Source: Candidatus Tayloriibacteriota bacterium
GTDB lineage: Bacteria; Patescibacteriota; Minisyncoccia; Phycocordibacterales; CAIRYW01
Length of the DNA stretch: 64,000 nucleotides
Reading direction: 5' to 3'
Assembly (NCBI GenBank): GCA_028286725.1
Contig: JAQBQZ010000007.1
Span: 7,262-71,261, forward strand
Shown here in pieces: positions 29,604 through 54,620 of this stretch. Position numbers and translations under genes: made by a program. The notes beneath the pieces are model-generated. The model saw only the letters and a list, made by a program, of their open reading frames with translations, ran no database searches and was not told the origin of the DNA. Within the stretch, counting starts at the first letter, position 1. Every line of letters begins with the position of its first letter.

Positions 29604-30827
29604 ATGCAACATAAGAAGCGAATACTTATATTTTCCCTTGTATATTACCCAAATTTTATAGGTGGTGCAGAAGTTGCAATCAAGGAAATTACTGATCGAC
29701 TAGGGCACGCCCAAGGGACTTTTGATACACAAAACTCCAGTGGGCAAGCTTTTGAGTTTGATATGGTAACACTTCATCTTGATTCACATCTCCCAAAGGT
29801 AGAGCGAATTGGCAACGTCACAATTCACCGTGTTGGTTGGACAAGTGATGAAAATGTGTCCGCAGATTCACTTCCAAAATCACTCCATTTAAATAAATAT
29901 GCGATGCTCCTAACAGCATTTTGGGAGGCGATGAGACTCCAGCATAAACACAAATACGATATTATTTGGAGTATGATGGCAACGTACAATTCCTTTGCGG
30001 CGCTCTTTTTCAAACTTTTGAATCCAAAAGTAAAATTCCTTCTGACACTTCAAGAAGGGGATCCAATTCCATTCATCAAACGCCGTGCACGACCTCTCTG
30101 GCCTCTTTTTAAGATGATATTTACTCGCGCAGACACTATTCAAGCTATTTCAAAATATCTTGCTGACTTCGGAATTGAAATGGGGGCGAAGTGTCCTGTG
30201 GTTGTGGTACCAAATGCGGTTGATATAAAACACTTTACACAAGAATATTCTGTCGAAGAGATAAATGAGATCAAAAAAAAGCTGAACAAAAAAGAAGGAG
30301 ACATATTTTTGATTACCACATCACGTCTTGTGACCAAAAACGCAGTAGAGGATATTGTTAAGGCAATGCCGTTACTTCCAGAAAATATCAAGCTCGTTAT
30401 TGCAGGAAGAGGATATTTGGAAGATTCAATCCGTAAGCTTTCGGTAATGCTTGGGGTAGAGAATCGAATTCAATTTTTGGGCTGGCTCACACACACTGAT
30501 ATGCCAAAGTATCTTAAAGCCTCAGATATATTCATTCGTGTACCGATTTCAGAAGGATTCGGTAATTCATTTGTTGAGGCGATGGCATGTGGACTTCCTT
30601 GTGTTACAACTCCTGTGGGTGGAATCTTGGATTTTCTTCGAGACCGTGAGACGGGAATATTTGCAGAAGTTCGTAATCCTGAAAGTGTAGCAAAAGCAGT
30701 GACGGAACTCGTCCGTAATCCAGAACTTGTGTCCCGGATAAAACGACAGTCTTTTGAAATGGTCAAAGAAAAATATGATTGGCCAATGATTGCAGATGAA
30801 ATGAAGAAGGTGTTTTTAAATATATAA
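29604..30827 (+). CDS. GT4-family glycosyltransferase
   Basis: Start set at the ATG at 29604, after the repeat element. GT4 C-terminal motif ISEGFGNSFVEAMACGLPCVTTPVGG…ETG. Confidence 0.85.
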   Translation: MQHKKRILIFSLVYYPNFIGGAEVAIKEITDRLGHAQGTFDTQNSSGQAFEFDMVTLHLDSHLPKVERIGNVTIHRVGWTSDENVSADSLPKSLHLNKYAMLLTAFWEAMRLQHKHKYDIIWSMMATYNSFAALFFKLLNPKVKFLLTLQEGDPIPFIKRRARPLWPLFKMIFTRADTIQAISKYLADFGIEMGAKCPVVVVPNAVDIKHFTQEYSVEEINEIKKKLNKKEGDIFLITTSRLVTKNAVEDIVKAMPLLPENIKLVIAGRGYLEDSIRKLSVMLGVENRIQFLGWLTHTDMPKYLKASDIFIRVPISEGFGNSFVEAMACGLPCVTTPVGGILDFLRDRETGIFAEVRNPESVAKAVTELVRNPELVSRIKRQSFEMVKEKYDWPMIADEMKKVFLNI

Positions 30828-30831
30828 ATAA

Positions 30832-31557
30832 ATGGATAATCACTCAGGAAAAATAAATTTTGATTTAAAGGAACGGGCAGAGGGGTCTATTAATGCTGCT
30901 AAGAACATTATTCTTGCCTCAATACCAGAAAATGAGATTGTTACAATCTGCGTAAAAGGGAGCTATGCGCAAGATGCTTTACAGGAAAAAAGTGATGTAG
31001 ATTTGGTATTAATTCTTAAAAACAATTCATCATTTCAAAAAGCATACTCATTAAGTGATCAGGGGAAGGAATTTGTTCCTCCTTTTTCAATTTCTGTATA
31101 TACCCAAGAGGAATTGAAAAGCGGCAAAGTTATAGAAAATCGATCAAGAGCACCATGGTCAATCAGTCGATTCAACAAAAATATTTCTGACATGCCGATT
31201 ATTTATGGGCAAATACCTGAGGGAGAATTTTTTATGAGAACAGATGAAAGGGATCTTTCAATTGATATCAGTACCGTGAAAGAAAAAGTTGTCCCTGAAT
31301 ACAGGTTAGGTAAATTGAGTTTTTATGAACTGTTAAAATGGGTGACCAGGCTTACGGAGTCAGAGCAAAGATTAAAAGGCTTTAGATCCTATCTATGGAA
31401 GAGAAATGCACTAAATACAAATGATCCAGGTCACATCATTCATGAGGCTTTACGACTGAGGGTATTGAGTGATGTTTCTGAAGAAGATAAAAAAAGTTTT
31501 TTGATAAGATTTGAGGAATATATTACACTACTTGAACAAGATATAAAAAATGAATAA
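30832..31557 (+). CDS. nucleotidyltransferase-domain protein (Pol-beta superfamily, KNTase/Lnu-like architecture)
   Basis: 241 aa. GSYAQDALQEKSDVDLVLIL is the GS-x(9-13)-DxD NTase signature. A helical C-terminal domain of ~140 aa follows. Confidence 0.5.
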   Translation: MDNHSGKINFDLKERAEGSINAAKNIILASIPENEIVTICVKGSYAQDALQEKSDVDLVLILKNNSSFQKAYSLSDQGKEFVPPFSISVYTQEELKSGKVIENRSRAPWSISRFNKNISDMPIIYGQIPEGEFFMRTDERDLSIDISTVKEKVVPEYRLGKLSFYELLKWVTRLTESEQRLKGFRSYLWKRNALNTNDPGHIIHEALRLRVLSDVSEEDKKSFLIRFEEYITLLEQDIKNE

Positions 31558-32893
31558 TTACAAAGAATATTTCAAAGATAAAAAAATCACTCAACTTGGA
31601 CTTGGACTTCTTGGTCGTGGGCTTGGGGACGCGATATTCCTTGCTGAATGCGGAGCAGAGCTTATTGTAACGGATCTCAAAACTGAAGAAGAGCTTAAGA
31701 CTTCAGTAGAAAAATTAAAAGGATATCCTAACATTACTCTTCATCTCGGGGGACATAATCTTGAAGATTTTAAAGCCCGAGATTTTATTTTAAAAGGAGC
31801 CGGGGTGCCGCTTGATTCAATATATATAGAAGAGGCTCGAAAGAATAATATTCCAATCGAAATGGATTCATCGCTCTTTTGCAAGCTTCTTCCAAAAGAA
31901 GTTATCACGATCGGTGTCACTGGCACTCGTGGCAAATCTACTGTGACACATCTCATTAATCATATTTTGAAAGGTGTTGGTAAAAAAACAATTCTCGGGG
32001 GGAATGTCCGTGATATGGCGACACTTCCTTTAATCAAAGATATTCAGCAAGGGGTCCGACCCCTTGCTGAGATTGTTGTGCTCGAACTCGATAGTTGGCA
32101 GCTTCAGGGATTTGGAGATGCAAAGATATCTCCTCGTATCGCAATCTTCACTGCATTTATGCATGACCACACCAACTACTACAAATCTACCCCAGAAATG
32201 TCTGGTCACGAGAGATATTTTGCCGACAAGTCAAATATTTATCTATATCAAAAAAGAGGGGATACTTTAGTTGCTGGAGAAACTATTTCGAATGTTATTG
32301 CTTCAAAACCTCATGGAGATGGAGAATTGACCATTGCACGTAGATCAGATGTTTCAGTAGATTGGAAACCAAAAATAATTGGAGAACATAATGTTTCAAA
32401 TATTGCTTGCGCGATTGAAGCTTGTAAGGCAATAGGGATTAGTATTGAAGATATCAAAAAAGGAGTAGAAAGTTTTCTAGGGGTAGAAGGGCGACTTCAG
32501 TTTGTAAAAGAAATAAATGGGGTGAAAATTTATAATGATAACAATGCTACAACTCCTGAAGCGACAATTGCTGCATTAAAATCTTTAGATACTAACATTG
32601 TATTGATTTGCGGTGGGTCAGATAAAGGTTTGGAATTAAATGGGCTTGTAGAGGAAATAAATAAAACCTGTAAATCTATTATTCTTTTGCCTGGATCTGG
32701 AAGTGATAAACTCACAATATTATCTACCAAAGTTCAAAACTTATCTGAGGCAGTTACTGAGGCTGTTAAAGTGGCAAAGTTTGGCGATACGATTCTCTTC
32801 AGTCCTGCATTTGCTTCATTTGGACTCTTCAAAAACGAATACGAAAGAAATGACGAATTTATGAAAATAATAAATGAAATAAAAAATGATTGA
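31550..32893 (+). CDS. murD: UDP-N-acetylmuramoylalanine--D-glutamate ligase
   Basis: 447 aa. N-terminal Rossmann pattern LGLGLLGRGLGDA, Mur ligase P-loop GVTGTRGKSTVTHL, and the C-terminal LFSPAFASFGLFKNEYERNDEFMK typical of MurD. Confidence 0.85.
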   Translation: MNNYKEYFKDKKITQLGLGLLGRGLGDAIFLAECGAELIVTDLKTEEELKTSVEKLKGYPNITLHLGGHNLEDFKARDFILKGAGVPLDSIYIEEARKNNIPIEMDSSLFCKLLPKEVITIGVTGTRGKSTVTHLINHILKGVGKKTILGGNVRDMATLPLIKDIQQGVRPLAEIVVLELDSWQLQGFGDAKISPRIAIFTAFMHDHTNYYKSTPEMSGHERYFADKSNIYLYQKRGDTLVAGETISNVIASKPHGDGELTIARRSDVSVDWKPKIIGEHNVSNIACAIEACKAIGISIEDIKKGVESFLGVEGRLQFVKEINGVKIYNDNNATTPEATIAALKSLDTNIVLICGGSDKGLELNGLVEEINKTCKSIILLPGSGSDKLTILSTKVQNLSEAVTEAVKVAKFGDTILFSPAFASFGLFKNEYERNDEFMKIINEIKND

Positions 32894-33428
32894 AATAATA
32901 ATTGGAACATCGAGACCTGGAGCATACTCAAGAAAAGTGGGGACAATGGTTTTTGAAATATATAAAGCGTTAGGGATTGAAGTGGGACTTATTGATCTTA
33001 AAGATGTGCCGCTTGAAGCATTCTCGGGAGATTCTATAAATGCACGACCTCTCCCAATTCAAAGTTTTGCAGACCGAATCCTTAAGGCGGATGGAGTTCA
33101 TTTTGTTACTCCTGAATATAACGGAGGAGTTCCAGGAGTCTTGAAATTCTTTATTGATCTTTTGCCATTTCCAGAAGCATTTCAAAATAGATGCTTCGCT
33201 ATTACATCTGTCTCTGCTGGAATGTGGGCAGGTATTCGTGCAGCAGGACATCTCGAAGATGTTGTTACTTACAAAGAAGGGATTATTTTTAATCAAAAAG
33301 TAATGATTGGTGGCGTCGTAAGTCTCTTTGATGAAAAAGATAATTTCACGGGAGAAAAAGAAAAGGAAAGACTTGAAAAACAGATCAAAGGATTTGGGGA
33401 GTTTGTGAAGAAAATAAGGTCCATTTAA
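32886..33428 (+). CDS. NADPH-dependent FMN reductase-family flavoprotein
   Basis: 180 aa. IIIGTSRPGAYSRKV…HFVTPEYNGGVPGVLKFFIDLL matches the SsuE/ArsH-type FMN reductase fold. Confidence 0.7.
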   Translation: MIEIIIGTSRPGAYSRKVGTMVFEIYKALGIEVGLIDLKDVPLEAFSGDSINARPLPIQSFADRILKADGVHFVTPEYNGGVPGVLKFFIDLLPFPEAFQNRCFAITSVSAGMWAGIRAAGHLEDVVTYKEGIIFNQKVMIGGVVSLFDEKDNFTGEKEKERLEKQIKGFGEFVKKIRSI

Positions 33429-33457
33429 GTCATTTTTTGTGGTATTATATTACTCAA

Positions 33458-34768
33458 ATGGATATAAGTAATATAAAAAAGGTTTACTTTCTCGGCATTG
33501 GGGGTATTGGAATGTCGGCTCTTGCTTTGCTTTTTATGCATGAAGGAAAAGATGTCTCTGGAAGTGATACGGGGTTTTCTAATCGTGACGGACTTGTGAA
33601 AGCAAGTGTTCCAACATTTGAAGGTTATCACGAATCTCATATCACACCGGACATCGATGCGGTGGTCTACACGCTCGCGACTCCAGAAGATAATATTGAA
33701 CTTATAAAAGCGCGAAAACTTGGACTTCCGGTTCTAAGCTATGCAGCAATGCTTGGCGAAGTTTCAAAGAGTAAGAAAACAATCGCCATCTGTGGAACTC
33801 ATGGGAAAACAACGACAACCGCAATGATTGCACATATGATGATCAAGCTGGGGCTTTCACCATCGGTAATAGTTGGTTCTCTTATGAAATACGAACATGA
33901 CGGAGTGGTGGAAAAAACAAACTTTATTCCAGGTACAAGCGAATATCTTGTTGCAGAATCTTGTGAGTACAAAAAATCTTTTTTGAATATCAATCCATCT
34001 GTTGTGTGTATTACAAATATCGATGCTGATCATCTCGACTTCTACGGAAATATTGAAAACATCATTGCATCGTTTAAAGAATTTATAGCAAAGCTGCCTC
34101 CAGATGGAGTGGTGATTGTGGATATGCTCGATCAAAATTCGATGAAAGCTGTTGAGGGTTGTAACAGAAAGGTGATTGATTCACGAGCATTCTTGGATAT
34201 GAGTCTAGGACTCAAAGTGCCTGGCCTTCATAACAAACAGAATGCTTCTGTGGCACTCGCTGTTTCTTCATACTTAGCTCTCAAACTAGATGACGCCAAA
34301 GAGGCTTTAAGGAGCTTTGGAGGTACTTGGAGACGATTTGAACACAAAGGTGCAACTAAGACTGGCGCACTCGTCTATGATGACTATGCGCATCATCCGC
34401 ACGAGATAATGGCGACCTTAAATGGAGCTCGAGAAGCTTTTCCTGATAAGAAGCTAACTGTTATTTTCGAACCACATCTTTATTCAAGAACAAAAGAACA
34501 TTTTGACGAATTTTCTGAAGTTCTCGCAAAATACGATACTGTATATTTGACTGATATATATGCTGCGAGAGAAAAATTTGACGGAAGTATTTCAAGCGGT
34601 CTCATGATTGAAACGATCAAGAAAAATAATCAAAATGCCTTTTATATCCCAGAATTCAAAGATATTGCAGAAAAAATAAATGAAACGACAAATCAAAACG
34701 ATGTTGTAATTACAATGGGGGCGGGAACAATAGGTGAACTCGCCGATCTGCTTGTTCACAATTCTTAA
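33458..34768 (+). CDS. murC: UDP-N-acetylmuramate--L-alanine ligase
   Basis: N-terminal FLGIGGIGMSALAL, P-loop GTHGKTTTTAMIAHM, C-terminal ITMGAGTIGEL. Start set at the ATG at 33458. Confidence 0.9.
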   Translation: MDISNIKKVYFLGIGGIGMSALALLFMHEGKDVSGSDTGFSNRDGLVKASVPTFEGYHESHITPDIDAVVYTLATPEDNIELIKARKLGLPVLSYAAMLGEVSKSKKTIAICGTHGKTTTTAMIAHMMIKLGLSPSVIVGSLMKYEHDGVVEKTNFIPGTSEYLVAESCEYKKSFLNINPSVVCITNIDADHLDFYGNIENIIASFKEFIAKLPPDGVVIVDMLDQNSMKAVEGCNRKVIDSRAFLDMSLGLKVPGLHNKQNASVALAVSSYLALKLDDAKEALRSFGGTWRRFEHKGATKTGALVYDDYAHHPHEIMATLNGAREAFPDKKLTVIFEPHLYSRTKEHFDEFSEVLAKYDTVYLTDIYAAREKFDGSISSGLMIETIKKNNQNAFYIPEFKDIAEKINETTNQNDVVITMGAGTIGELADLLVHNS

Positions 34769-34778
34769 TTTCTAATAA

Positions 34779-35789
34779 ATGACCAAAAGCACAAATATTA
34801 AACATATCTTGATCGCTACTGGTATCTATCCTCCTCAAATCGGAGGTCCTGCTGAATATACAAAAAATATTGAAGAAGTGTGGAAGAATGAAGCTTACAA
34901 AGTAACTGTCAAATATTTTTCTTTCGAACACAAGCTTCCATCAGGACTTCGGCATATTTATTTTTTGATCAAGTCTTTTTATGCGGTAATGCGAGCGGAT
35001 TTCATTCTTGTTCTCGATACATTTAGTGTTGCGTTGCCTATAATGATCGCCTGCAAAATTTTAAACAAAAAATATATTGTTCGAACAGGTGGAGATTTTC
35101 TGTGGGAATCATTCGTTGAAAGAACAAGGAAAAAAGTTCTTTTCAAAGATTTCTACAATACTGAAACGAATAATTTTACTTCCAAAGAATATTTTATTTT
35201 CAAGGTAACAAAAAAAATACTTCTTAACGCTGATAAAATAATCTTTAGTACTGCTTGGCAAAGAGACATATGGCAGAATCCATATAACATCGATATTTCG
35301 AAGACTAAAATCGTCGAGAATTTTTATGGTGAGCATTCTTTGAATAATGCATTTGAATCAAAAACATTTATCGGCGCAACACGAAATCTTGTCTGGAAAA
35401 ATACTGACACTTTAAAATCTATCTTTGAAGATAAACAAATCGCAGAGACTGGTGTAAAGCTCGATCTTGATACTTCAAGTCATGAGGACTTTATAGCTCG
35501 CATACAGGCTTCGTATGCTGTTATATTGGTGTCGCTCGGAGATATAAGTCCAAATATGATAATGGATGCAATAAGACTAAATAAGCCATTTATTGTAACA
35601 AAGGAGATTGGTATCTATGCCCGGATACGCGATATTGGGATATTCGTAGATCCATTAAATAAGAAGGATATAAAAGAAAAAATATTATGGCTTCTGGAGG
35701 AGCAAAATTATAATGAGCAAATAGAGAAGATTCAGAATTTTACTTTCCGGCATTCATGGCAATTGTTAGCTAATGAGATTTTAAATTAG
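34779..35789 (+). CDS. putative glycosyltransferase (GT-B, GT4-like)
   Basis: 336 aa. N-terminal ILIATGIYPPQIGGPAEY is typical of GT4 N-terminal domains. The C-terminal motif is degenerate. Confidence 0.45.
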   Translation: MTKSTNIKHILIATGIYPPQIGGPAEYTKNIEEVWKNEAYKVTVKYFSFEHKLPSGLRHIYFLIKSFYAVMRADFILVLDTFSVALPIMIACKILNKKYIVRTGGDFLWESFVERTRKKVLFKDFYNTETNNFTSKEYFIFKVTKKILLNADKIIFSTAWQRDIWQNPYNIDISKTKIVENFYGEHSLNNAFESKTFIGATRNLVWKNTDTLKSIFEDKQIAETGVKLDLDTSSHEDFIARIQASYAVILVSLGDISPNMIMDAIRLNKPFIVTKEIGIYARIRDIGIFVDPLNKKDIKEKILWLLEEQNYNEQIEKIQNFTFRHSWQLLANEILN

Positions 35790-36878
35790 ATGACAAAAAT
35801 AATAATGATTTCAAGAGACGTGAAAGCGCTTGATACATCGAGTGCGGTTTTCGAGCGTCTCAAAGAATACTCTAATCTTTTTGATGAACTGCTTGTTGTG
35901 GTGATGGGGCACAAATCAAACGGCAAATTTTATAGTAGAGATAAACTGACAATCTATAATGCAACAAGTCATTTTAAAATATTTTCTTTTTTTAAAGCTT
36001 TCCTACAGGCTCGTAAACTTGCTCAAAAAAACAAAGGAACTGAAGCTTGGATCACTTCCCAAGATCCATTTGAAAGCGGACTGTTGGCGTACTTTGTTTC
36101 AAAATTAAGCAATATTAAACTCCAGCTTCAATTTCACACCGACTGCTTTAATATTCTTTATATAAAACATAGTCTCAAAAATTATTTCCAGACACTCATT
36201 GCTCGATTCTTGCTCATAAGAGCGGACAACATTCGAGTTGTATCAGAGCGAATCAAAAGTTCGATTCTTTCAATGAACAATAAGCTGGCATCACGAATTT
36301 CTGTTTTACCTGTATGGACTGATATTGAAAAGATACAAACGAAACCTGTAGATACGCGATATGACTTAAAGAAAAAGTTCCCTGAGTTCAGCAAAATAAT
36401 ACTTATTGTGGCACGTCTTGAGAGTGAGAAGAATCTTGACCTTTCACTCCTTTCATTCAAAAAAGCTCTTCGATTCGATGAAAAGCTCGGGCTCGTGATT
36501 GCAGGAAATGGACGAAAAGAGAAGTGGCTTAAAAGCCTTGTTAAATCTTTAAATATTGAAACTAATGTGAAATTTCTAGGTTGGGCGCCAGATGTCGCCT
36601 CGCTTTTCAAAACTTCGGATCTGCTTCTTGTTACTTCATTTTATGAAGGCTACGGACTTAATATGGTTGAGGCTGTTGCTTCAGGATGTGCTGTGGTAGC
36701 AACTCAAGTAGGTGTAGCAGAGAATGTGGAGGCAACTCTCGTACCTTACGATGCGGGGAAAATTGCGGTCGCTATTATTGATGTTTTAAAAGAAAATACA
36801 AAACCAAAAATTAATGCTCGATTCATTATCTCAAAACAAGAATATTTAAATCAATTCAAGAATACATTTAAAATATGA
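35790..36878 (+). CDS. GT4-family glycosyltransferase
   Basis: C-terminal VTSFYEGYGLNMVEAVASGCAVVATQVG. ATGA overlap with the downstream gene. Confidence 0.8.
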   Translation: MTKIIMISRDVKALDTSSAVFERLKEYSNLFDELLVVVMGHKSNGKFYSRDKLTIYNATSHFKIFSFFKAFLQARKLAQKNKGTEAWITSQDPFESGLLAYFVSKLSNIKLQLQFHTDCFNILYIKHSLKNYFQTLIARFLLIRADNIRVVSERIKSSILSMNNKLASRISVLPVWTDIEKIQTKPVDTRYDLKKKFPEFSKIILIVARLESEKNLDLSLLSFKKALRFDEKLGLVIAGNGRKEKWLKSLVKSLNIETNVKFLGWAPDVASLFKTSDLLLVTSFYEGYGLNMVEAVASGCAVVATQVGVAENVEATLVPYDAGKIAVAIIDVLKENTKPKINARFIISKQEYLNQFKNTFKI

Positions 36879-39048: not shown

Positions 39049-39058
39049 AAAAGTGATA

Positions 39059-43545: not shown

Positions 43546-43553
43546 TTTGTATA

Positions 43554-45326
43554 TTATTCAATATCTGCTTTATGTGTTTCAAACCAGATCGCAAGGCACA
43601 GAATAAGCCACACCCTGTAAGCAAGCTTTTCTTCTCCATTATAATAGCAATGAGTAAGATGTTGAGTTTCTTTTTGGCTTATATATGAAAATATTTGATG
43701 CTCTTTGTTTTTAGAGAGCGCCACAAGAAAAGTTTTTATTTCACTTAAATGAAGCCATGTTTTTACAGGTGCTCCAAAGCCTTGTTTGCGACGGTAGACG
43801 AAGTCCGGATCCATCTCTTCGGTGAGAATATCTTTTAGTATTATTTTGCCATTATTGTTCTTACCATCTAATTTGTAGGAAGCTGGGAGAGAATAGACAT
43901 ATTCTGCAAGCTTTGTATCAAGAAATGGGGATCTCACTTCAAGCGAATTTGCCATGCTTGTACGATCTATTTTGGTCAAAAGCTGTCCTGGAAGATAAAC
44001 GAGAATATCCCAAAGATTCATTTTGTCTTCTGAGTTAAGTCCTGAATCTCTTACTTCTTCTGGTACGAATATTGGTTTTGCATTATAGGCGAGCAGCTCA
44101 CTTCTTTCTTTCTGGCTAAATATTTCTATGAGCTTTAAGTGGTCTTTAAATGGATCTGAAAACAAACGAGCGGTGATCCGTTTAAAAAAGGGGAGCTGCA
44201 AGTGCTTCCAGTACCATCCATATCCCAAAAAGAATTCATCGGCTCCATCACCCGTGAGTGCAACTTTGACCGACTTGTGCGCGAGATTCGATATGAGGTA
44301 TTGAGATACATCAGAAGAATCTCCATGAGGTTCGTCTAAGTATTCAAAAGTTTTACGAAGTTCAGAAAGGAGTGAATCATTAACAGAAAGCGTGTGATGG
44401 TCTGATCTTATTTTTTCTGAAACTTTGAGGGCATAGGGTAATTCATTGATTGTATCTCCATAAGAAAGGGAAAAGGTTTTGAGTGGTTTTGAAAGTATAC
44501 GCGATGCATAGATGCTAACAAGGGATGAATCGACGCCTCCCGAAAGAAGCGAGCCAACCTCAACATCCGATGAAAGCATTCGTGTGGTCACCGCATCTTT
44601 GAAAAGCGTTTTGATTTTTTGTTTTGCTTCGTCATATGTGTCGGTATTTTGGGCTTTGATGAGATGCCAGTACTTTTCTCTCCGAATTCCATTTTCATCT
44701 ACAATTGCAAAATGGGCGGGTGGAATAGTCTTAATGTTTGAATATATAGTCATGTGCGGCGGTACGTACATAAGCGACAGATATGCATCAAGGGCCTCTT
44801 TGTTTATGACACCTTTGAATCCAAGCGCATGGAGCGCCTTGATCTCTGATGCAAAATAAAAATTATCGTCTTTGTCTTTCGTGTAGTAGAGAGGTTTTTT
44901 GCCGAACCTGTCACGAGCGACAAATAATCTATTTTTAGTTTTATCATAGATTACAAATGCAAACATTCCATCGAGTTCTTTTACACAGTCTTTGTCATAT
45001 GCAATATAGGCTTGAAGTATTACTTCAGTATCAGAGTGTGTTTTGAAGATTGCGCCAGATTTCTGCAGTTTTTCTCGGAGGATTTTGTAGTTGTAAATCT
45101 CACCATTAAAGACAATCGTGTATGCTCCATCACTAGTTGTCATAGGCTGTCCACCGGAAGAGAGATCGATGATAGAAAGGCGAGTGTGCCCCAAAAGAAC
45201 ATTATCGATTTGCATATGTTTGGATGCATCAGGGCCTCGAAGCGCGAGCGCTTCGAGGCCTGCTTTTATATCGATCGAATTCAATGCTTCTTTGTTTGTT
45301 GTCTTAATAGCAATTATTCCACACAT
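43554..45326 (-). CDS. asnB: asparagine synthetase B-family glutamine amidotransferase
   Basis: Start at MCGIIAI (N-terminal nucleophile Cys2). PP-loop SGGVDSS. Full two-domain AsnB architecture. Confidence 0.85.
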   Translation of the reverse strand: MCGIIAIKTTNKEALNSIDIKAGLEALALRGPDASKHMQIDNVLLGHTRLSIIDLSSGGQPMTTSDGAYTIVFNGEIYNYKILREKLQKSGAIFKTHSDTEVILQAYIAYDKDCVKELDGMFAFVIYDKTKNRLFVARDRFGKKPLYYTKDKDDNFYFASEIKALHALGFKGVINKEALDAYLSLMYVPPHMTIYSNIKTIPPAHFAIVDENGIRREKYWHLIKAQNTDTYDEAKQKIKTLFKDAVTTRMLSSDVEVGSLLSGGVDSSLVSIYASRILSKPLKTFSLSYGDTINELPYALKVSEKIRSDHHTLSVNDSLLSELRKTFEYLDEPHGDSSDVSQYLISNLAHKSVKVALTGDGADEFFLGYGWYWKHLQLPFFKRITARLFSDPFKDHLKLIEIFSQKERSELLAYNAKPIFVPEEVRDSGLNSEDKMNLWDILVYLPGQLLTKIDRTSMANSLEVRSPFLDTKLAEYVYSLPASYKLDGKNNNGKIILKDILTEEMDPDFVYRRKQGFGAPVKTWLHLSEIKTFLVALSKNKEHQIFSYISQKETQHLTHCYYNGEEKLAYRVWLILCLAIWFETHKADIE

Positions 45327-45362
45327 AAAAGAAATTATAACGTTAAAATGCGTTTGCTCCAA

Positions 45363-46226
45363 CTATACTCGCTTCCATTCTGGAGGAGTCAGATCGTCAG
45401 TATTCCAGCCTTTGTTGAACCATTTTTTGGGTGCGTAGACGAGTTTGTTTTTGTTGTTTGATAGCCAGGCTGCCCACCAGCTAAAGGTGCTGTTTGCGAT
45501 GATGAAATGTTTGGCATGGCTCATTGCGACAAGCTCTTCGTGAGGAGTGGCTGTTGGAACATCAACATATTCACATGGAAAAGGAATTTTGAAATGTTCT
45601 TTTGCCCAAGCTATCTCATCTGAAAAAATAAAAAAATATGCATGAGGAATTTTTTTTGAAATTTCGTTTATAGAGTATTCATAATATTCGCGCGATGTCA
45701 GCCCGTGATGCTTTGTGGTACCTGGATTATTTGCATAATCACCCCGGCGAATATGGATTACGACAGATTCTGTAGCATTCATTTTTGAGATGTAGGGCGT
45801 GTATGGCTTTTGGATTTCGTCTTTAAGAATGAGTTCTTTTCGGAGTATGTCGTGGATATCTTCAAAATATTTGTATGATTGCCACCAGCCATCAAAATAT
45901 GAGTCTTTGCGATTCTTCATATACTCATCCAAAAAATGAAAAGTATATTCTTCGATGTATTTTTGAGAATTTGCAAAAAGAGGATTATAGATTCTGCCTA
46001 TTATACCTTTTTGTTTTTTGAAAATTTTAAAGCGGGCACATTCTTCTTTGGATGCTTTAGGTAGAATTGTATTGAAATATCCGAGGCCATATGTGAGATA
46101 TGTATGCGTCTTAAAAAAATCAAAATCATATTTAACTTCGGTGTCGTTTCGTATGCCATAGGCACGCGCAAATGCGTATTCGAAGAGCTGATTTCCGAGT
46201 CCACCCTGAAGCTTTAATATATGCAT
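45363..46226 (-). CDS. GT11-family glycosyltransferase (alpha-1,2-fucosyltransferase type)
   Basis: LKLQGGLGNQLFEYAFARAY (motif I) and HIRRGDY (motif II). Confidence 0.85.
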   Translation of the reverse strand: MHILKLQGGLGNQLFEYAFARAYGIRNDTEVKYDFDFFKTHTYLTYGLGYFNTILPKASKEECARFKIFKKQKGIIGRIYNPLFANSQKYIEEYTFHFLDEYMKNRKDSYFDGWWQSYKYFEDIHDILRKELILKDEIQKPYTPYISKMNATESVVIHIRRGDYANNPGTTKHHGLTSREYYEYSINEISKKIPHAYFFIFSDEIAWAKEHFKIPFPCEYVDVPTATPHEELVAMSHAKHFIIANSTFSWWAAWLSNNKNKLVYAPKKWFNKGWNTDDLTPPEWKRV

Positions 46227-46228
46227 CT

Positions 46229-47476
46229 TTATTTTGAATTTCTAATAAGAATTCCAAGGGTAATGAAATCAATACATTCAGAGGCAAGAAGGGCAATCAC
46301 GGCTCCTTCGATTCCGTACATTGGTACCAAGGCTATTGCAAGAATTATTCGAGTCATAGTAGGGAATACCGTAACAATATAAGTTTCTTTTATTTTTTGA
46401 TGGGCGGTGATCGCGGCGGTCAAAAGTTTTCGAGGCGAAGACAGGAGGGTCAGCGATGCGATCTGTGAAAGACCGACTGCATCTGTGTAAAGTGGAAATA
46501 AGTATTTAAATATTAAAGGAGCGCTCAAAATATAGAGAATAATAATAGGCACTGCAACAAAATACATTTGTCGGACACGAAAGAAAACATGGCTCTTCAC
46601 CTCGCTAAAATCTTTTTGTGCAAATTTTGGAATGGCAATTGTACTCTGGTTTTCAATCAAATTTTTGAGTTCTCGGACAGGCGCTATTGCATAAGTATAT
46701 ATCGCTACTGGCGCTGCGCCGACAAATTTCCACAAGAGCAAATCATCAATCTGTTCTGATAGATATCCGAACATGCTTAATATTCCGCTGTGAAATGCAT
46801 ATTTTTTTGCAAACGGCTCTTTTTCATTTGCTCCAATTTGAGCAATATTTTTCTTCATTTTGTGGTAAAGGAAGCTGCCCAAAATGAGATTCGTTATAAT
46901 GCTTGTGATAACTACGATGATCGCTGATCTGGAGGTGATCGCTGTAATAATAAGTGCGATCGTAATAAATGGCGTTCGCATAAGATTGAATCGAGACATA
47001 AATGCAAAGTCTCCCTTTGCATTAAAGTATGATTTTGCCACACTGTTTCTTATAGAAATAGGGAGAGTGATTGCTGCCACTAAAAAACAGATGCCGAGGT
47101 CTATATTGTTATGGAGGATATAATAGATAGATACAATTCCAAGTGAAAGTCCGCCAAGCAAGGACCATGGATAAATAGTTTTGAGTCCTTCATAAATAAC
47201 CCCGTCGTTGCCTCTTGAGATGCTTTTGCTTATGCCTGAGCCAAGCGCTGTGGTCTGCGCCATACTGAAGAATCCGATGAAGGCAAGCGCGAAAGTATAA
47301 AGTCCATAATCTTCTTTAGTCAGAATGTTTGCATAGACGATTGAGAGGATGAGTCCGTTTAGGACACTTGATGCTCGGCCAATATTAATCCAAAGATTGC
47401 TCCGCACAAAATACACCATGTCCGTTTTAGTGTACTTTTCCGTCCATTTTAAAAATCCAATAATTTTATCTTTCAT
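46229..47476 (-). CDS. wzx: Wzx-type polysaccharide flippase (MOP superfamily)
   Basis: About 12 TM helices in the polysaccharide-biosynthesis-protein pattern. Start chosen at the ATG at 47476 (MKDKIIGF…), overlapping the fcl stop by 11 nt. Other in-frame ATGs are possible. Confidence 0.7.
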   Translation of the reverse strand: MKDKIIGFLKWTEKYTKTDMVYFVRSNLWINIGRASSVLNGLILSIVYANILTKEDYGLYTFALAFIGFFSMAQTTALGSGISKSISRGNDGVIYEGLKTIYPWSLLGGLSLGIVSIYYILHNNIDLGICFLVAAITLPISIRNSVAKSYFNAKGDFAFMSRFNLMRTPFITIALIITAITSRSAIIVVITSIITNLILGSFLYHKMKKNIAQIGANEKEPFAKKYAFHSGILSMFGYLSEQIDDLLLWKFVGAAPVAIYTYAIAPVRELKNLIENQSTIAIPKFAQKDFSEVKSHVFFRVRQMYFVAVPIIILYILSAPLIFKYLFPLYTDAVGLSQIASLTLLSSPRKLLTAAITAHQKIKETYIVTVFPTMTRIILAIALVPMYGIEGAVIALLASECIDFITLGILIRNSK

Positions 47477-48410
47477 TAAGTTCTTTGTAATGTGTTTTGT
47501 AGAACTCGTAAGCATTTTTGAGTCCTTTTTCAAATGATGTTTTTGGCTTCCATCCAAGTGCTTTGATCTTTTGCACATCCAAAAGCTTTCGCGGAGTGCC
47601 GTTTGGTTTTGTAGTATCCCATAGAATCTTCCCTTTAAATCCTGTCATTTCTTTCATCTTTTGTGCGAGAGATTTAATTGACATATCAACACCTGATCCA
47701 AGGTTTATGATCCCTGGGCCATTGAATTTGTTCATGAGAAATACGAATCCTTCCGCAGCATCATCAATATAGAGAAATTCTCGCTTTGGCGTACCATCCC
47801 CAAATAGAGTGATCTCTTTTTTATTATTTAAAATTGCATCATGGAATTTGCGGATAAGCGAAGGAATAACATGGCTTGTGACAGGATCAAAGTTATCAAA
47901 TGGTCCATAAAGATTGGTAGGCATTACTGCTATAAAATTCGTTCCATATTGCTTGTTGTATGCATCGCACATCTTGATACCTGCGATCTTTGCTATTGCA
48001 TATGCGTCATTTGTTTCTTCTAAGGCGCTCGTCATGAGATATTCTTCTTTGATCGGCTGCTTTGCAAATTTTGGATAGATGCATGAACTGCCGAGAAAAA
48101 GAAGTTTCTTGACTTCTGCTTTGTACGCGCTATGTATGACTACGTTTTGGATCTTCAGGTTATCAAAAATAAAATCTGCAGGATTATTTTTGTTTGCTAT
48201 TATTCCACCGACTTTTGCTGCAGCAAGAAATACATACTCGGGCTTTTCTTTGTTAAAATAGGCGAGAGTCGCTTTTTCATCCATAAGATCAACTTCTTTA
48301 TGAGTAGGGGCGAGGACATTGGTATAGCCTTTTCTTTTGAGTTCACGGATAATAGCGCTTCCAACAAGTCCGCTTCCTCCAGCGACAAATATTTTTGAAT
48401 CTTTTTTCAT
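47466..48410 (-). CDS. fcl: GDP-L-fucose synthase (GDP-4-keto-6-deoxy-D-mannose 3,5-epimerase/4-reductase)
   Basis: 314 aa SDR. KIFVAGGSGLVGSAI, catalytic YxxxK (YAIAK), and typical Fcl length and pattern. Confidence 0.9.
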   Translation of the reverse strand: MKKDSKIFVAGGSGLVGSAIIRELKRKGYTNVLAPTHKEVDLMDEKATLAYFNKEKPEYVFLAAAKVGGIIANKNNPADFIFDNLKIQNVVIHSAYKAEVKKLLFLGSSCIYPKFAKQPIKEEYLMTSALEETNDAYAIAKIAGIKMCDAYNKQYGTNFIAVMPTNLYGPFDNFDPVTSHVIPSLIRKFHDAILNNKKEITLFGDGTPKREFLYIDDAAEGFVFLMNKFNGPGIINLGSGVDMSIKSLAQKMKEMTGFKGKILWDTTKPNGTPRKLLDVQKIKALGWKPKTSFEKGLKNAYEFYKTHYKELNER

Positions 48411-48413
48411 TGG

Positions 48414-49466
48414 TTATTGTGTTTTAACTTTAAGTTCTTGTTCTGCGAGCTTCATATCAGAATCGATCATTATTTTGACCAAGTCTTCGAATTTTGTCTT
48501 TGGTTCCCATCCAAGCTTTTCTTTAGCTTTTGCCGGATCACCAATAAGGAGATCAACTTCTGCTGGTCTAAAATATGCAGGATCAATCTCGAGGATTGTT
48601 TTTTGTGTTTTTGTATCAATTGCTTTTTCTTCAACACCCTGACCTTGCCATTCGATATTCATATCAAGATGCTTCGCAGCAATATTTACGAACTCTCGGA
48701 CTGAATGAGTTTCGTTTGTTGCAAGAAGGAAGTCATCGGGCATTTCTGCTTGAAGCATAAGCCACGCGCCTTCCATGTAATCTTTTGCAAATCCCCAGTC
48801 TCTTTTTGAATCAATATTTCCAAGGAAAAGCGTTTCTTGAAGTCCTAGCTTGATTCTCGTCAGTGCTCGCGTAATCTTTCGTGTTACGAAAGTCTCGCCT
48901 CGCCGAGGAGATTCGTGGTTGAATAGAATTCCGTTAACAGCAAACATGTTATAGCTCTCACGATAGTTTTTTGTGATCCAGTACGCGTAGACCTTTGCGC
49001 ATCCATAGGGAGATCGCGGGTAAAACGGAGTAGTTTCCTTTTGAGGAATCTCTTGGACAAGTCCAAACATTTCTGATGATGATGCTTGATAGAACTTGAT
49101 CTTTTTTTTACTTTCTCTAATCGCATCAAGAATACGGAGCGTACCCAAGCCGTCAATATCAGACGTGTATTCTGGCATATCAAAACTTACCTTTACGTGG
49201 CTTTGAGCGCCTAGATTGTAGACTTCGTCAGGCTGGATCTTCTCGATAAGACGAGAAATGTTGCTAGAGTCGGAGAGGTCGCCATAATGCAAGAAAAATT
49301 TCACATCTTTGCTGTGTCTGTCTTGATAAATATGATTGATACGCTCAGTATTGAATGATGACGATCTGCGAACAATGCCATGTACCTCATATCCCTTTTC
49401 AAGTAATATATCCGCAAGATATGACCCGTCTTGGCCGGTAATTCCTGTTATCAAAGCTTTTTTCAT
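48414..49466 (-). CDS. gmd: GDP-mannose 4,6-dehydratase
   Basis: [43 protein letters not shown] is the canonical Gmd N-terminus. Catalytic YxxxK region [10 protein letters not shown]. Confidence 0.9.
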
Positions 49467-49543
49467 AAGCCAAAGTCTAGCATCCTTTTGTTAAATTATC
49501 TAGAAGATTTTGAGATAAGTTAAGGCTTATATATAATAGATAA

Positions 49544-49996
49544 ATGAAAAAAAAAGGAGTTGAAAAAGTGGTGGCGGTAAGCGGGGGATTTGATCCGATC
49601 CATATTGGGCATATTCGAATGTTCGAAGAGGCGAGAAGACTTGGAGATAAGCTTGTAGTGATCTTGAACAATGATAACTGGCTCCAGAAGAAGAAAGGAT
49701 ATGTCTTTATGGATGAAAAAGAGAGAAAAGAGATATTGTTGTCGCTTCGATCGGTTGATGAGGTGGTTATTACGAAACATAAAAAAAATACAACCGACAT
49801 GAGTGTTTGTGATGCATTAAGAGCAGTAAAGCCTGATATTTTTGCAAACGGAGGTGATAGGACAAAGAAAAATATTCCAGAGATACCGGTCTGTAAAGAG
49901 ATTGGCTCTAAAATGGTCTTTTCTGTTGGAAAAGGTGGAAAAGTGCAGTCGAGCTCCTGGCTCGTCAACAAAAGTGTGAACCTAAGACAAAAATAA
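49544..49996 (+). CDS. cytidylyltransferase-like nucleotidyltransferase (HldC / RfaE-domain-II-like sugar-phosphate nucleotidyltransferase)
   Basis: 150 aa. VVAVSGGFDPIHIGHIRMFEEARRLGDKLVVIL carries the HxGH motif. C-terminal part resembles RfaE domain II. Confidence 0.7.
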   Translation: MKKKGVEKVVAVSGGFDPIHIGHIRMFEEARRLGDKLVVILNNDNWLQKKKGYVFMDEKERKEILLSLRSVDEVVITKHKKNTTDMSVCDALRAVKPDIFANGGDRTKKNIPEIPVCKEIGSKMVFSVGKGGKVQSSSWLVNKSVNLRQK

Positions 49997-50018
49997 TCGC
50001 TAAATAAATACCTAAAAT

Positions 50019-50130
50019 AGCTTGAACCCTCATAATCCAAAATTTTGGTAAAAAACCAAGTTTCGTCGGTCGCCATACCACAGGTATGCCTCCCTCCTCA
50101 TCCTTTGTTTTTTCCTTCATAATTTTGAAT
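50019..50130. repeat. intergenic repeat family, copy C (shorter and more divergent)
   Basis: GCTTGAACCCTCATAATCCAAAATTTTGGTAAAAAACCAAGTTTCGTCGGTCGCCATACCACAGGTATGCCTCCCTCCTCATCCTTTGTTTTTTCCTTC aligns with copies A and B at ~75% identity. Confidence 0.65.
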
Positions 50131-50225
50131 TATGAGGTGTCCATTATTTTTGACTTAGGTTCAAAAAGTAGTAGTATTTAGACCTACATTAATTATTAAT
50201 TTACTAGCTGTTTATATATTAAAGA

Positions 50226-52586
50226 ATGAATAATTTTATTTTAAAAACGATCAAGATCCTGCTTTGCGCGCTACCTCTCGTTTCGATTGTGGTAGCTGAT
50301 TCGATGTTCTTTCCATTTATTACTGGCAAGGCATTTTTGTTCCGTGTTGCTATTGAGCTCATTACTTGTCTTTATATTGCTCTTGCATTTGCCGATCCTC
50401 GCTTTCGACCAAAGAACAACAAGCTTCTTGTGGCTTTTGGGACTTTTGTAGGAATCATTTTTGTTGCTGATATTTTTGCTGTGGATGCCTCAAAAGCCTT
50501 CTTTAGTAATTTTGAAAGAATGGAAGGGTTCGTACTCTTGGCGCACCTTTTTGCATATTTTCTGGTTCTCATAAATGTCTTCAAAGAAAAGAAAGATTGG
50601 ATAATGATGATTGGATCAAATGTTGCCGTTTCTGTATTTATGACATTCTTTGCATACTTGCAGTTCTTTGGCGGAGCTGTCATCAACCAAGGAGGTGTGC
50701 GACTTGATGGAACACTCGGCAACTCTGCATATATGGCGACATATATGCTCTTCAATATTTTCTTCTTGATCTACCTATGGTTCTCAAATGGCAACAAAGT
50801 TAAAGGGATTAGCGATATTATTATCGGAGGTTCATCACTATATATAGTCTATTATCTCTATGAACTTTCTAAAAAAGGTCTTGATTATAGCCTTGCTGGA
50901 GGAGTTATATTGGCAATTGTGCTCCTTGCGCTGCTTAAAGCGTGCTGGTTTAGGTTTGGAGATACATTCAAAAAATTTGATCACCTTTATGCACTATCGG
51001 TCTATAGTATTTTGATCATTGCTCAAATAATCATTCTTTATTACACGGCAACTCGTGGAGCAATATTGGGACTCATCGGAGGACTTTTGCTCACTGCAAT
51101 AATAATCGCAATCACCGAAAAAGAGCATAGGCATATAAAAAATGTATCAATCGCTGTTATTGCGATTCTCTTTGTTGTTGTTTTTGGATTTATACTTATT
51201 AAAAACACTTCGTTTGTAAAGAACAGTCCGGTACTTACTCGGTTTGCTTCTATCTCTATTGATGACACAAAGACTCAGGCTCGATCAATCATCTGGCCTA
51301 TGGCTATTGATGCATTCAAAGAAAAGCCGGTGCTAGGATGGGGACAAGATAACTTTATAATTGCATTTGCAGAGTACTATAGACCAGAAATGATTCGTCA
51401 CGAGCCGTGGTTTGACCGAACACATAATGCATTCCTTGATTGGCTGATAGCTGGGGGAATATTAGGATATATTGGATACCTATCGCTGTATGTTTTTGCA
51501 CTTCGAGGACTTTGGAAAAGTGCAATGTTTACGAAAAGAGAGAAAGCTGTTTTGATCGGTTTGTTTTCTGCATATGCATTCCAAAATCTTTTCATCTTCG
51601 ACAACCTCATAAGCTATATGTTGTTTATTCTTCTTCTTGGACTCTCAAATCTTGATGTTAGTACAGAGGAGAGCAAGAAAAATGTTTCTGAAGAGATTGG
51701 TGCGCCGCTACTTGCATCTGTTGTTGTGATATTCGTGATCATTCTTTTGCTTGTAAATTATCGACCATATGAGCAGAATATTACCCTCTCTCAAGGCATC
51801 GGCCAGCAACAAGAAGGTGTAACAAAAAATCTTTCTCTATTAAAACAAGCGCTCTCATATGGTCCAACGGGAGAATTCGAGACAACAGAGCAAATGGATC
51901 GAATTGCTATGGATGTACTCGGCTCAGCTCAAGTAGCAGATCAAGACAAAAATGATTTTGGTCTCGCAACACTCGATGCTCTTAAGGCAGAAGTTGCGAA
52001 GCATCCTAAAGATGTAAGAACTTATATCAATCTTGGTTCATTTGAAGCGGATGTTGGAATGTCTGATGATGCAATTCCTGTTCTTGAACAGGCGAAAGTG
52101 CTTTCTCCAAAAAAGCAGCAAATCTATTTTTCTTTGGCTAAAGCGTATTTCTTGAAGGGGGACAAAGAAAAGGATCAATCATATACAGACAAGGCTCTGG
52201 AAACTCTTAAGTATGCATATGATCTTGCTCCAGGATTCGATGCGCCAAAATTGATCTATGCGCAGTCTCTTGCTGTCACAGGACACATTGCAGAGGGTGT
52301 TGCAATTGCAAAGACAATGGATAATCCAGGGGACTTTACTACTCCCGCAGTCGTGAAGATAATGGTAGAAAACGGACATGCAGACGATGCTGTCTCGGTG
52401 CTTGAAATTGCTATAAAAGCCGATCCTACAAACAAGTCCCTTTATACACTTGTTTCAGATATTTATACATTTAAGAAGGATAAGGCAAAGGCGATTGAGT
52501 GGCTCAAGGCTCTTGAGGTGGCTTTACCGAGCGCAACTGATGAAGCTGAGCAGGATATCGTAAAAGTGAACGCAGCCTTGAAGTAA
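50226..52586 (+). CDS. O-antigen ligase/polymerase (Wzy_C) family membrane protein with C-terminal TPR-like domain
   Basis: 786 aa. About 12 TM helices. A large loop between helices with the RGAILGLIGGLLL pattern typical of the Wzy_C/WaaL/PglL family. Roughly 280 aa of C-terminal soluble alpha-helical repeats. Confidence 0.7.
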   Translation: MNNFILKTIKILLCALPLVSIVVADSMFFPFITGKAFLFRVAIELITCLYIALAFADPRFRPKNNKLLVAFGTFVGIIFVADIFAVDASKAFFSNFERMEGFVLLAHLFAYFLVLINVFKEKKDWIMMIGSNVAVSVFMTFFAYLQFFGGAVINQGGVRLDGTLGNSAYMATYMLFNIFFLIYLWFSNGNKVKGISDIIIGGSSLYIVYYLYELSKKGLDYSLAGGVILAIVLLALLKACWFRFGDTFKKFDHLYALSVYSILIIAQIIILYYTATRGAILGLIGGLLLTAIIIAITEKEHRHIKNVSIAVIAILFVVVFGFILIKNTSFVKNSPVLTRFASISIDDTKTQARSIIWPMAIDAFKEKPVLGWGQDNFIIAFAEYYRPEMIRHEPWFDRTHNAFLDWLIAGGILGYIGYLSLYVFALRGLWKSAMFTKREKAVLIGLFSAYAFQNLFIFDNLISYMLFILLLGLSNLDVSTEESKKNVSEEIGAPLLASVVVIFVIILLLVNYRPYEQNITLSQGIGQQQEGVTKNLSLLKQALSYGPTGEFETTEQMDRIAMDVLGSAQVADQDKNDFGLATLDALKAEVAKHPKDVRTYINLGSFEADVGMSDDAIPVLEQAKVLSPKKQQIYFSLAKAYFLKGDKEKDQSYTDKALETLKYAYDLAPGFDAPKLIYAQSLAVTGHIAEGVAIAKTMDNPGDFTTPAVVKIMVENGHADDAVSVLEIAIKADPTNKSLYTLVSDIYTFKKDKAKAIEWLKALEVALPSATDEAEQDIVKVNAALK

Positions 52587-52675
52587 CTTAAAACTTGCTT
52601 TTTTTCTCGAGGTATGGTACTATATATCTTGTGAGTCGCGGATATATATTCGAGCTCCAAATAAGCAAACATCGA

Positions 52676-52710
52676 CGAAACCACCTGAAAGGGTGGTTTT
52701 GTTTTGTCTT
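52676..52710 (+). terminator. Rho-independent terminator
   Basis: AAACCACC-TGAAAG-GGTGGTTT followed by TGTTTTG. Confidence 0.6.
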
Positions 52711-54588: not shown

Positions 54589-54620
54589 GAATTTTAATTA
54601 GTAGACAAAGTAATAATATG

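Follow-up and report, generated by a model that had tools for sequence, protein, structure and literature searches.

In a 64-kb stretch of a Candidatus Taylorbacteria metagenome-assembled genome (Patescibacteria/Parcubacteria group), analysed over its whole length and referred to below as the window, we found a dense group of glycan-biosynthesis genes at positions 29604-52586. It ends with the gene of a 786-amino-acid (aa) membrane protein in which a Wzy_C domain is joined to C-terminal tetratricopeptide repeats (TPR), named Wzy_C-TPR hereafter. On balance, we favour the reading that the region is a conserved chromosomal slot carrying a strain-specific surface-glycan cassette, and that its product would be a lipid-linked glycan flipped by Wzx and transferred en bloc by Wzy_C-TPR. 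The type of pathway is already known, namely a Wzx-dependent lipid-linked glycan finished by a Wzy_C-family transferase. What the analysis adds is the fixed slot with non-homologous cassettes in closely related Taylorbacteria, anchored by an outward-facing enzyme with a WaaL fold and a TPR domain that is conserved across Paceibacteria. No prior description of the locus in Patescibacteria was found in the searchable literature.

Cassette replacement between conserved flanks

Gene families were assigned by Pfam and NCBIfam scans of the open reading frames (ORFs) across the window, and the region was compared with 86 loci carrying Wzy_C-TPR (numbered within L001-L093; six were obtained via contig look-ups and 80 from a metagenome scan, at 31-73% identity). 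The genes form three units: a plus-strand block (29604-39048), a minus-strand block (39059-49466) and a plus-strand unit made of a small cytidylyltransferase gene and Wzy_C-TPR, which is followed by murB and secA.

The comparison with the relative represented by L008 and L002 shows where the conserved and the variable parts meet (L008 was recovered by a murC-anchored search and overlaps L002 exactly, the two being one contig). The flanking proteins are 82-91% identical between the two strains, with 88% for the VirD4-like ATPase, 83% for the first family 4 glycosyltransferase (GT4), 82% for MurD, 91% for the FMN reductase, 89% for MurC and 83% for MurB, compared with 54% for Wzy_C-TPR. The minus-strand genes have no counterpart there, save weak FkbM and Wzx matches (28-30%), and the glycosyltransferase (GT) genes of the plus-strand part of the cassette find only 22-46% matches. 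The nucleotide sequences are similar precisely up to the murC stop codon (34768), and again from 50280 onwards. A second relative, L001, keeps the right flank (SecA 90%, MurB 78% and Wzy_C-TPR 70% identity) and carries a third cassette with PMT_2, DegT and several methyltransferases. The cytidylyltransferase ORF is kept in place in that locus, where the overlapping reverse-frame ORF is 69% identical and Pfam reports CTP_transf_like. In more distant loci, L004-L007 among them, sets with NeuB, FdtA/DegT, Glyphos_transf, PMT_2/GtrA or deacetylases occupy the same place. The left breakpoint differs between relatives, the 336-aa gene that follows murC being still 76% identical in L009 and 57% in L010, and 32% in L008. 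Conserved flanks around a non-homologous middle, together with these breakpoints, point to a variable unit of ~15 kb (about 34779-49996) set in a conserved frame of GT4-murD-FMN reductase-murC on the left and Wzy_C-TPR-murB-secA on the right, as judged from sequence comparison.

The Wzy_C-TPR protein and its family

An earlier reading of this DNA, made from the sequence only, had described the 786-aa protein as a plain Wzy_C-family ligase/polymerase and had overlooked its C-terminal TPR domain of ~260 aa (aa ~526-786), which follows a membrane domain (aa 1-525) with 15 transmembrane (TM) helices. The AlphaFold2 model, based on 51 homologues, has a predicted local distance difference test score (pLDDT) of 91 and a predicted TM-score (pTM) of 0.88. 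Searched at full length, the model retrieved only TPR proteins such as OGT and SPY, while a model of residues 1-530 (pLDDT 81) retrieved WaaL (7TPG; E = 3.1e-4, probability 1.00, TM-score 0.56), with no other fold match of the membrane domain at E <= 0.001. A sequence search with the membrane domain against the PDB gave no matches. By the positive-inside rule (alternating Lys/Arg-rich loops) the protein is N-in and C-out, and the segments FFPFITGK, SNFERMEG, INQGGVRxDG, TATRG, the 326-401 loop, FDRxHN and FDN as well as the whole TPR domain are predicted to be on the outer face.

Five residues (R277, R353, D397, R398 and H400) are invariant in the 51 homologues, and R277, R353 and H400 lie on the predicted outer face. 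By spacing they would be equivalent to R215, R288 and H338 of Escherichia coli WaaL, the intervals being 76 + 47 residues here and 73 + 50 there. E. coli WaaL requires its three residues, and PglL has them conserved too (PMC3643930). When strains are compared, conservation within Wzy_C-TPR is highest in the catalytic loop (71% vs P0011) and lowest in the TPR domain (31%). Since the family can be aligned over its full length across Paceibacteria, despite identities as low as 31%, Wzy_C-TPR looks more like a conserved ligase or oligosaccharyltransferase than a serotype-specific Wzy.

The family is large, with at least 2827 homologues at E <= 1e-10 among 8000 candidates scored, and the named sources in the top 120 are all Patescibacteria, Parcubacteria, Paceibacteria or unclassified bacterium. 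Of the 44 loci whose sequence extends far enough, 38 have secA within 6 kb downstream of Wzy_C-TPR, whether or not murB intervenes, and 31 of 67 have murB within 3 kb on that side. Directly upstream, a divergent Wzx flippase is found most often, and gmd/fcl pairs are frequent neighbours. Four distant Parcubacteria loci have, as the gene directly next to Wzy_C-TPR and divergent from it, a WbaP-type priming phosphoglycosyltransferase (PGT; Bac_transf, PF02397, 212-217 bits), and the family appears for this reason to be tied to polyprenyl-diphosphate-linked donors. Given that murB adjoins in only about half of the loci and secA nearly always, the mur linkage is looser than the secA linkage; it looks like inherited gene order and is not strong functional evidence, so that a functional coupling with the mur genes, which we had also considered, was weakened by the 31/67 count. 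The stable adjacency of a glycan transferase gene with the gene of the Sec motor is an observation in its own right, and may be functional or plain inherited gene order.

The sequence-only reading had also pointed out that no priming transferase and no Wzz are encoded in the window, and this was borne out. The Pfam scans, which covered all candidate ORFs longer than 163 aa and those with more than one predicted TM helix (nine ORFs of 95-163 aa were unscanned), found neither PF02397 (WbaP/PglC) nor PF00953 (MraY/WecA) in the window, and neither Wzz nor a protein of the LCP family. A six-frame scan for the signature motifs of both priming families likewise found none in the window; in the related loci the same scan gave four true positives, verified by Pfam. 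As an anomaly, however, the missing primer does not stand, for none was found near Wzy_C-TPR in about 80 of the 86 related loci. A primer encoded elsewhere in the genome is the simplest reading and the usual state for the family, because primers are rarely near Wzy_C-TPR and WbaP-type PGTs are widespread in Parcubacteria, as a search with a Parcubacteria WbaP-type PGT showed. O-antigen loci, too, commonly rely on an unlinked wecA.

Genes of the cassette and its surroundings

The features are listed in the table. Most of the gene families named in the sequence-only reading were recovered about where it had placed them (Gmd and Fcl, two GT11, two GT2, FkbM, AsnB, Wzx and the 786-aa Wzy_C protein), with the exception of its sixth GT4 (34779-35789), whose match is sub-threshold at 18.7 bits vs 26.4.

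Table. Features of the window, and priming transferases next to Wzy_C-TPR in related loci, with the matches on which they rest
Feature	Position	Strand	Evidence and remarks
GH16 glycoside hydrolase	8681-9706	-	
Cellulose-synthase-like membrane GT2	9974-11632	-	7 TM helices
TreT-like GT4	11771-13042	+	
VirD4/TraG/HerA-like ATPase	27424-29247	+	Directly 5' of core GT4; syntenic, 88/80/74/59/55% identity in five relatives
Conserved core GT4	29604-30827	+	Glycos_transf_1 133 bits; outside variable cassette
Pol-beta/NTP_transf_2 nucleotidyltransferase	30832-31557	+	Pfam 28 bits; between core GT4 and murD
murD (UDP-MurNAc-L-Ala:D-Glu ligase)	31550-32893	+	TIGR01087 293 bits vs cut-off 212; 82% identity to L008
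NADPH-dependent FMN reductase family	32886-33428	+	PF03358 96 bits; 91% identity to L008
murC	33437-34768	+	TIGR01082 411 bits vs cut-off 335; 89% identity to L008; left boundary of cassette
GT-B-like protein, 336 aa	34779-35789	+	Glycos_transf_1 18.7 bits (E = 1.4e-3), cut-off 26.4; first cassette gene
GT4	35790-36878	+	Glycos_transf_1 107 bits
GT4	36875-37909	+	Glycos_transf_1 63 bits
GT4	37909-39048	+	Glycos_transf_1 69 bits
GT11-like, divergent, fucosyltransferase superfamily	39059-39982	-	PF01531 29.0 bits (cut-off 23.9), C-terminal half only
FkbM-family S-adenosylmethionine-dependent methyltransferase, RfbT-like	39983-40762	-	PF05050 67 bits; PF05575 RfbT 31 bits; TIGR01444 88.5 bits
GT2	40756-41670	-	PF00535 93 bits
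GT2	41540-42415	-	PF00535 102 bits
GT4, weak match	42412-43545	-	Glycos_transf_1 36 bits
AsnB-type glutamine-dependent amidotransferase	43554-45326	-	PF00733 261 bits and GATase_7; TIGR01536 455 bits vs cut-off 267
GT11 fucosyltransferase	45363-46226	-	PF01531 114.8 bits, full length; canonical HIRRGD (HxRRxD) at aa 158
Wzx-type MOP flippase	46229-47578	-	Polysacc_synt_3 50.8 bits and Polysacc_synt 44.1 bits, both above cut-offs
Fcl, GDP-L-fucose synthase-like epimerase/reductase	47466-48410	-	NF047922 446 bits, below cut-off 500; Epimerase 213 bits
Gmd	48414-49466	-	PF16363 517 bits
Small cytidylyltransferase-fold nucleotidyltransferase, 150 aa	49544-49996	+	PF01467 59.5 bits
Wzy_C-TPR, 786 aa	50226-52586	+	PF04932 81.2 bits vs cut-off 31.7 (aa 263-419) and TPRs; right boundary of cassette
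Terminator-like hairpin and T-run	52674-52703	+	3' of Wzy_C-TPR
murB	52926-53981	+	FAD_binding_4 and MurB_C; 83% identity to L002, 78% to L001; right-flank gene
secA	54967-57447		Follows murB
WbaP-type PGT	L062:2291-3574; L078:6290-7573; L087:2456-3724; L090:1-1274	-	

The minus-strand block is read in the order Gmd, Fcl, Wzx, GT11, AsnB, GT4, GT2, GT2, FkbM and GT11-like. Fucosylation of the glycan is well supported, as the sequence-only reading had proposed, by Gmd, the Fcl-like enzyme and a GT11 with the HxRRxD motif. That motif, a mark of GT11 alpha-1,2-fucosyltransferases which it had named as a check on its two GT11 proteins, is intact in one of them (HIRRGD, 45363-46226), and is a variant in the other, where HIRQGD lacks the second Arg (39059-39982). 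A sequence search of the canonical GT11 against the PDB gave no matches. Methylation and amidation, also part of the earlier proposal, are reasonable inferences from the FkbM/RfbT-like methyltransferase and from an AsnB with its catalytic Cys. The AsnB protein probably starts at the MCG of codon 13 of an ORF beginning at 45362; with this start the N-terminus is MCGIIAIK and the Met-Cys used for glutamine hydrolysis is kept. Its best solved relative in the PDB search is a hydroxyamidotransferase, 7YLZ. The 5' part of the asnB coding region also holds a GC-rich perfect hairpin of 13 bp (GGGCCTCGAAGCG...CGCTTCGAGGCC, 45232-45261). With the flippases that relatives encode at this position the Wzx protein shares 26-30% identity, and its start is probably internal, as the ORF overlaps fcl by 113 nt.

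The 150-aa nucleotidyltransferase had been called HldC-like. It reaches 84.1 bits with the HldC equivalog rfaE_dom_II (TIGR02199), well short of the cut-off of 181.5, and 55.7 bits with TagD, and in the PDB search ECT (8e-16) and TagD (8e-11) rank above HldC (2.7e-7). No other heptose-pathway genes were found within the window. The protein thus appears at least as close to TagD/ECT as to HldC, and may supply a CDP-activated phospho-substituent rather than ADP-heptose. Its gene is the plus-strand ORF 49544-49996; an ORF of 199 aa on the opposite strand (49477-50076, minus) was rejected as a shadow of it, having no family match. The best match to a sigma-70-like promoter in the region lies just upstream (49510-49537, plus strand, TTGAGA-16-TATAAT, 11/12), although promoter-like sites overall are not above chance. 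Together with the terminator-like hairpin of the table it weakly suggests that the cytidylyltransferase and Wzy_C-TPR form one unit.

On the plus strand, the core GT4 at the left end is syntenic in L008 (83% identity), L009 (79%), L010 (55%) and L011 (47%). Its start is likely 29604 rather than the ORF start at 29523, MQHKKRILIF beginning at codon 28 and the nucleotide similarity to the relative beginning at 29611. The Pol-beta-type nucleotidyltransferase that follows has no homologue in any related locus compared, and in L008 GT4 and murD abut; it is a small strain-specific insertion, separate from the cassette, and is probably unrelated to the glycan. At the same GT4/murD junction L009 carries a different insert of ~2.1 kb, so that this junction is a second small variable spot. 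The 336-aa GT-B-like protein next to murC is semi-conserved and has no PDB or NCBIfam match. We considered whether one of the GT-B proteins next to murC could be a divergent MurG, or the flippase a MurJ, and rejected both, no GT28 or MurJ Pfam match having been obtained. The frames of the three GT4 genes at 35790-39048 abut or overlap, and the proteins have at most 46% identity in relatives.

Several observations concern the non-coding parts of the right flank and lie outside the glycan genes proper. Between Wzy_C-TPR and murB there is a long stable hairpin (52734-52824, plus strand; minimum free energy -43.3 kcal/mol, z = -6.5 vs shuffles), whose core of 65 nt (52747-52811) is 100% identical in a relative, while the flanking genes there have only ~80% nucleotide identity. 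No Rfam family matched this hairpin, which is a candidate structured RNA or murB leader. The non-coding stretch between murB and secA (54041-54602) is conserved as well, at ~85% nucleotide identity to L001 and to the L008/L002 relative. It contains a tiny Lys/Ala-rich ORF (54323-54412, 29 aa, MAAKKVAKKGKAKKAAPKKKAAPKKKARI) and a second long hairpin (54437-54602) with only sub-threshold, miRNA-precursor-like Rfam matches. Upstream of the region studied, a separate glycan gene set is found at 8681-13042, and two PAP2 phosphatases lie at 18535-19702.

Pathway, rival explanations and known systems

Under the favoured reading, a polyprenyl-phosphate-linked oligosaccharide of roughly ten sugars, fucosylated and probably methylated and amidated, would be built on the cytoplasmic face. 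It would be primed by a phosphoglycosyltransferase encoded elsewhere in the genome and assembled by about nine or ten GTs, including one canonical and one divergent GT11. Wzx would flip the lipid-linked glycan to the outer face, where the WaaL-fold Wzy_C-TPR would move the entire glycan from its lipid carrier onto an acceptor that the outward TPR domain may help to recognise. By analogy with WsfB and PglL, the acceptor is most likely a Sec-exported surface protein (a pilin, a surface-layer (S-layer) protein or another), and less likely the cell wall or a lipid. Lipopolysaccharide (LPS) is regarded as absent from Patescibacteria, and no lpx genes were found within the window. The earlier preference for a protein- or wall-linked glycan over LPS agrees with the closest known analogue, the S-layer O-glycosylation of the WsfB type.

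Several points weigh against this scheme. Neither the priming transferase nor an acceptor was found in the window, where there is no pilin or S-layer candidate and where a scan for the class III signal motif gave one chance match. The PglL-specific PglL_A motif (PF15864) was not among the Pfam matches of Wzy_C-TPR at E <= 0.01, and this motif separates PglL from WaaL (PMC3643930). The mapping of R277, R353 and H400 onto WaaL rests on spacing and not on a residue-level structural alignment. In addition, Wzy_C-TPR diverges faster than its neighbours (54% vs 82-91%), as a donor-specific polymerase would, a repeat unit for polymerisation could just as well be what the nine or ten GTs make, and the three to four GT genes tightly linked in an operon with murD and murC may point to a product for the wall.

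The alternative closest to these last points is that Wzy_C-TPR is a Wzy-type polymerase, in which case the repeat unit flipped by Wzx would be polymerised outside into a capsule, exopolysaccharide or secondary wall polysaccharide, as teichuronic acid is with TuaE, and another enzyme would attach or release the polymer. Wzx and a Wzy_C-family protein are the classical pair, there are weak NCBIfam matches to TuaC, TuaG and TuaH, the divergence between strains is what recognition of a variable glycan would produce, and TPR domains accompany polysaccharide export machines. Nevertheless, Wzy_C-TPR, the sole candidate for a Wzy, resembles a ligase more, and we regard a polymerase as unlikely. True Wzy polymerases are usually too diverse for alignment between serotypes, whereas this family retains ~55 invariant residues over its full length across very different cassettes, and its divergence is concentrated in the TPR domain and not in the catalytic loop. 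The fixed position outside the variable block resembles that of waaL or pglL and not that of wzy, no Wzz/PCP and no LCP ligase were found in the window, and the sole structural match is WaaL, though a solved Wzy for comparison may not exist.

Were the product directed to peptidoglycan, the co-transcription with murD and murC would be accounted for, as would the neighbouring murB: the WaaL-fold enzyme could ligate the flipped glycan to lipid II or nascent peptidoglycan, which is the job of LCP proteins, or the cassette enzymes, AsnB included, could modify peptidoglycan precursors. All frames from the core GT4 (29604-30827) to the last GT4 (37909-39048), those of murD and murC included, abut or overlap and are probably one operon; murB comes after Wzy_C-TPR in this window, as it does in 31 of 67 loci; no LCP protein was detected in the window; in some Gram-positives peptidoglycan is amidated by AsnB-type enzymes; and the predicted topology places the TPR domain outside, next to the wall. 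Against this, murB is missing from its position in about half of the loci, whereas secA is nearly always present, close relatives lack AsnB and most of the GTs, which are therefore not core wall functions, and we know of no precedent for a WaaL-family peptidoglycan ligase; we hold this explanation to be improbable. We give similarly little credence to a broader proposal, that Wzy_C-TPR is the general envelope-glycan ligase of Paceibacteria and a new class of wall-glycopolymer or protein ligase, which in a host lacking LPS and with no LCP ligase found nearby would join strain-variable lipid-linked glycans straight to lipid II or peptidoglycan, or to Sec substrates during translocation, with the slot as the serotype locus of these episymbionts, even though it would explain the near-universal adjacency to secA and murB. 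The least probable explanation is the framing of the sequence-only reading, taken as a single horizontally acquired glycan island of 23 kb (29604-52586) with the missing primer as its distinctive feature. Glycan genes are indeed dense across the interval, and the plus-strand GT4 block has a slightly lower GC (0.354 vs 0.382). However, GC is flat over the window (0.35-0.40; cassette 0.354-0.382, whole window 0.382) and the tetranucleotide distances of the cassette are at or below the window mean, so that the composition check against the flanks shows no island and no sign of foreign origin, and a compositional island was rejected. Scans for tRNAs and Rfam families gave no integration-site tRNA and no known RNA. 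The plus-strand block is also not purely one of glycan genes, for it holds murD, murC, the FMN reductase and the Pol-beta-type nucleotidyltransferase, and murB follows Wzy_C-TPR; the sequence-only reading had named none of these five. Conserved, syntenic core genes make up the left 5 kb and, with Wzy_C-TPR, the right 3 kb, leaving a replaceable middle of only 15 kb, while an unlinked primer is the rule in related loci and is common in wecA-dependent O-antigen loci.

Patescibacteria are ultra-small, mostly uncultured bacteria that live attached to other microbes. Which hosts they recognise and which phages can infect them presumably depends on their surface molecules, yet their glycobiology is almost unexplored. 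The comparison turns a generic list of GTs into a defined and comparable locus, a fixed slot between murC and Wzy_C-TPR-murB-secA in which non-homologous cassettes sit in near-identical genetic backgrounds, with a conserved WaaL-fold enzyme and its external TPR domain as the probable last step. The slot is a practical marker for typing surface-glycan diversity in metagenomes, and H400, R277 and R353 together with the TPR domain offer a single well-modelled target for heterologous glyco-engineering assays.

In regards to known systems, the O-antigen and capsule serotype loci (E. coli galF-gnd, pneumococcal dexB-aliA) share with the slot conserved flanks that bracket non-homologous cassettes in close strains and a Wzx inside the cassette, and the wecA-dependent ones also an unlinked primer. 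They differ from our case, in which the cassette holds neither Wzy nor Wzz and is flanked by murC on one side and by a WaaL-like gene with secA on the other, and in which the host is an ultra-small Patescibacterium. The Gram-negative O-oligosaccharyltransferases PglL and PilO, also of the Wzy_C family, transfer oligosaccharides linked to undecaprenyl diphosphate en bloc to exported proteins and resemble our case in their relaxed donor specificity with variable glycan loci; a C-terminal TPR motif has been reported in PglL (PMC2943079). In contrast, PglL_A is unmatched here, no pilin gene is adjacent and the host is monoderm. WaaL (7TPG) has in common with Wzy_C-TPR the Pfam Wzy_C domain, the membrane fold and a gene outside the variable glycan genes, and the three invariant residues that Wzy_C-TPR has on its predicted outer face (Arg, Arg and His) are spaced much as in WaaL. 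It differs in its lipid A-core acceptor, which the host here is regarded as lacking, in having 12 TM helices instead of 15 and in lacking the extra extracytoplasmic TPR domain (260 aa), and sequence identity is only ~13%.

The closest described analogue, by domain and gene content, would be the O-glycosylation of S-layer proteins in Gram-positive bacteria (slg loci), with WsfB of Paenibacillus alvei and WsaB of Geobacillus stearothermophilus (PMC2943079). These loci encode a WbaP-type primer of their own (WsfP/WsaP), and a known S-layer protein is nearby or serves as their target; neither was seen in the window. They also show a low-GC signature that is absent here. In P. alvei, WsfB, a predicted O-oligosaccharyltransferase, consists of Wzy_C and a C-terminal TPR, and the locus also carries an asparagine-synthase homologue (wsfA) and tagD (PMC2943079). 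Both systems belong to monoderm hosts regarded as lacking LPS and have a Wzy_C transferase with a C-terminal TPR, ours being likened to WsfB by domain description. They also share the asparagine-synthase homologue, a cytidylyltransferase (of tagD type in the slg locus), several GTs, methyltransferase activity and nucleotide-sugar genes, and in both the strain-specific central genes are tightly packed.

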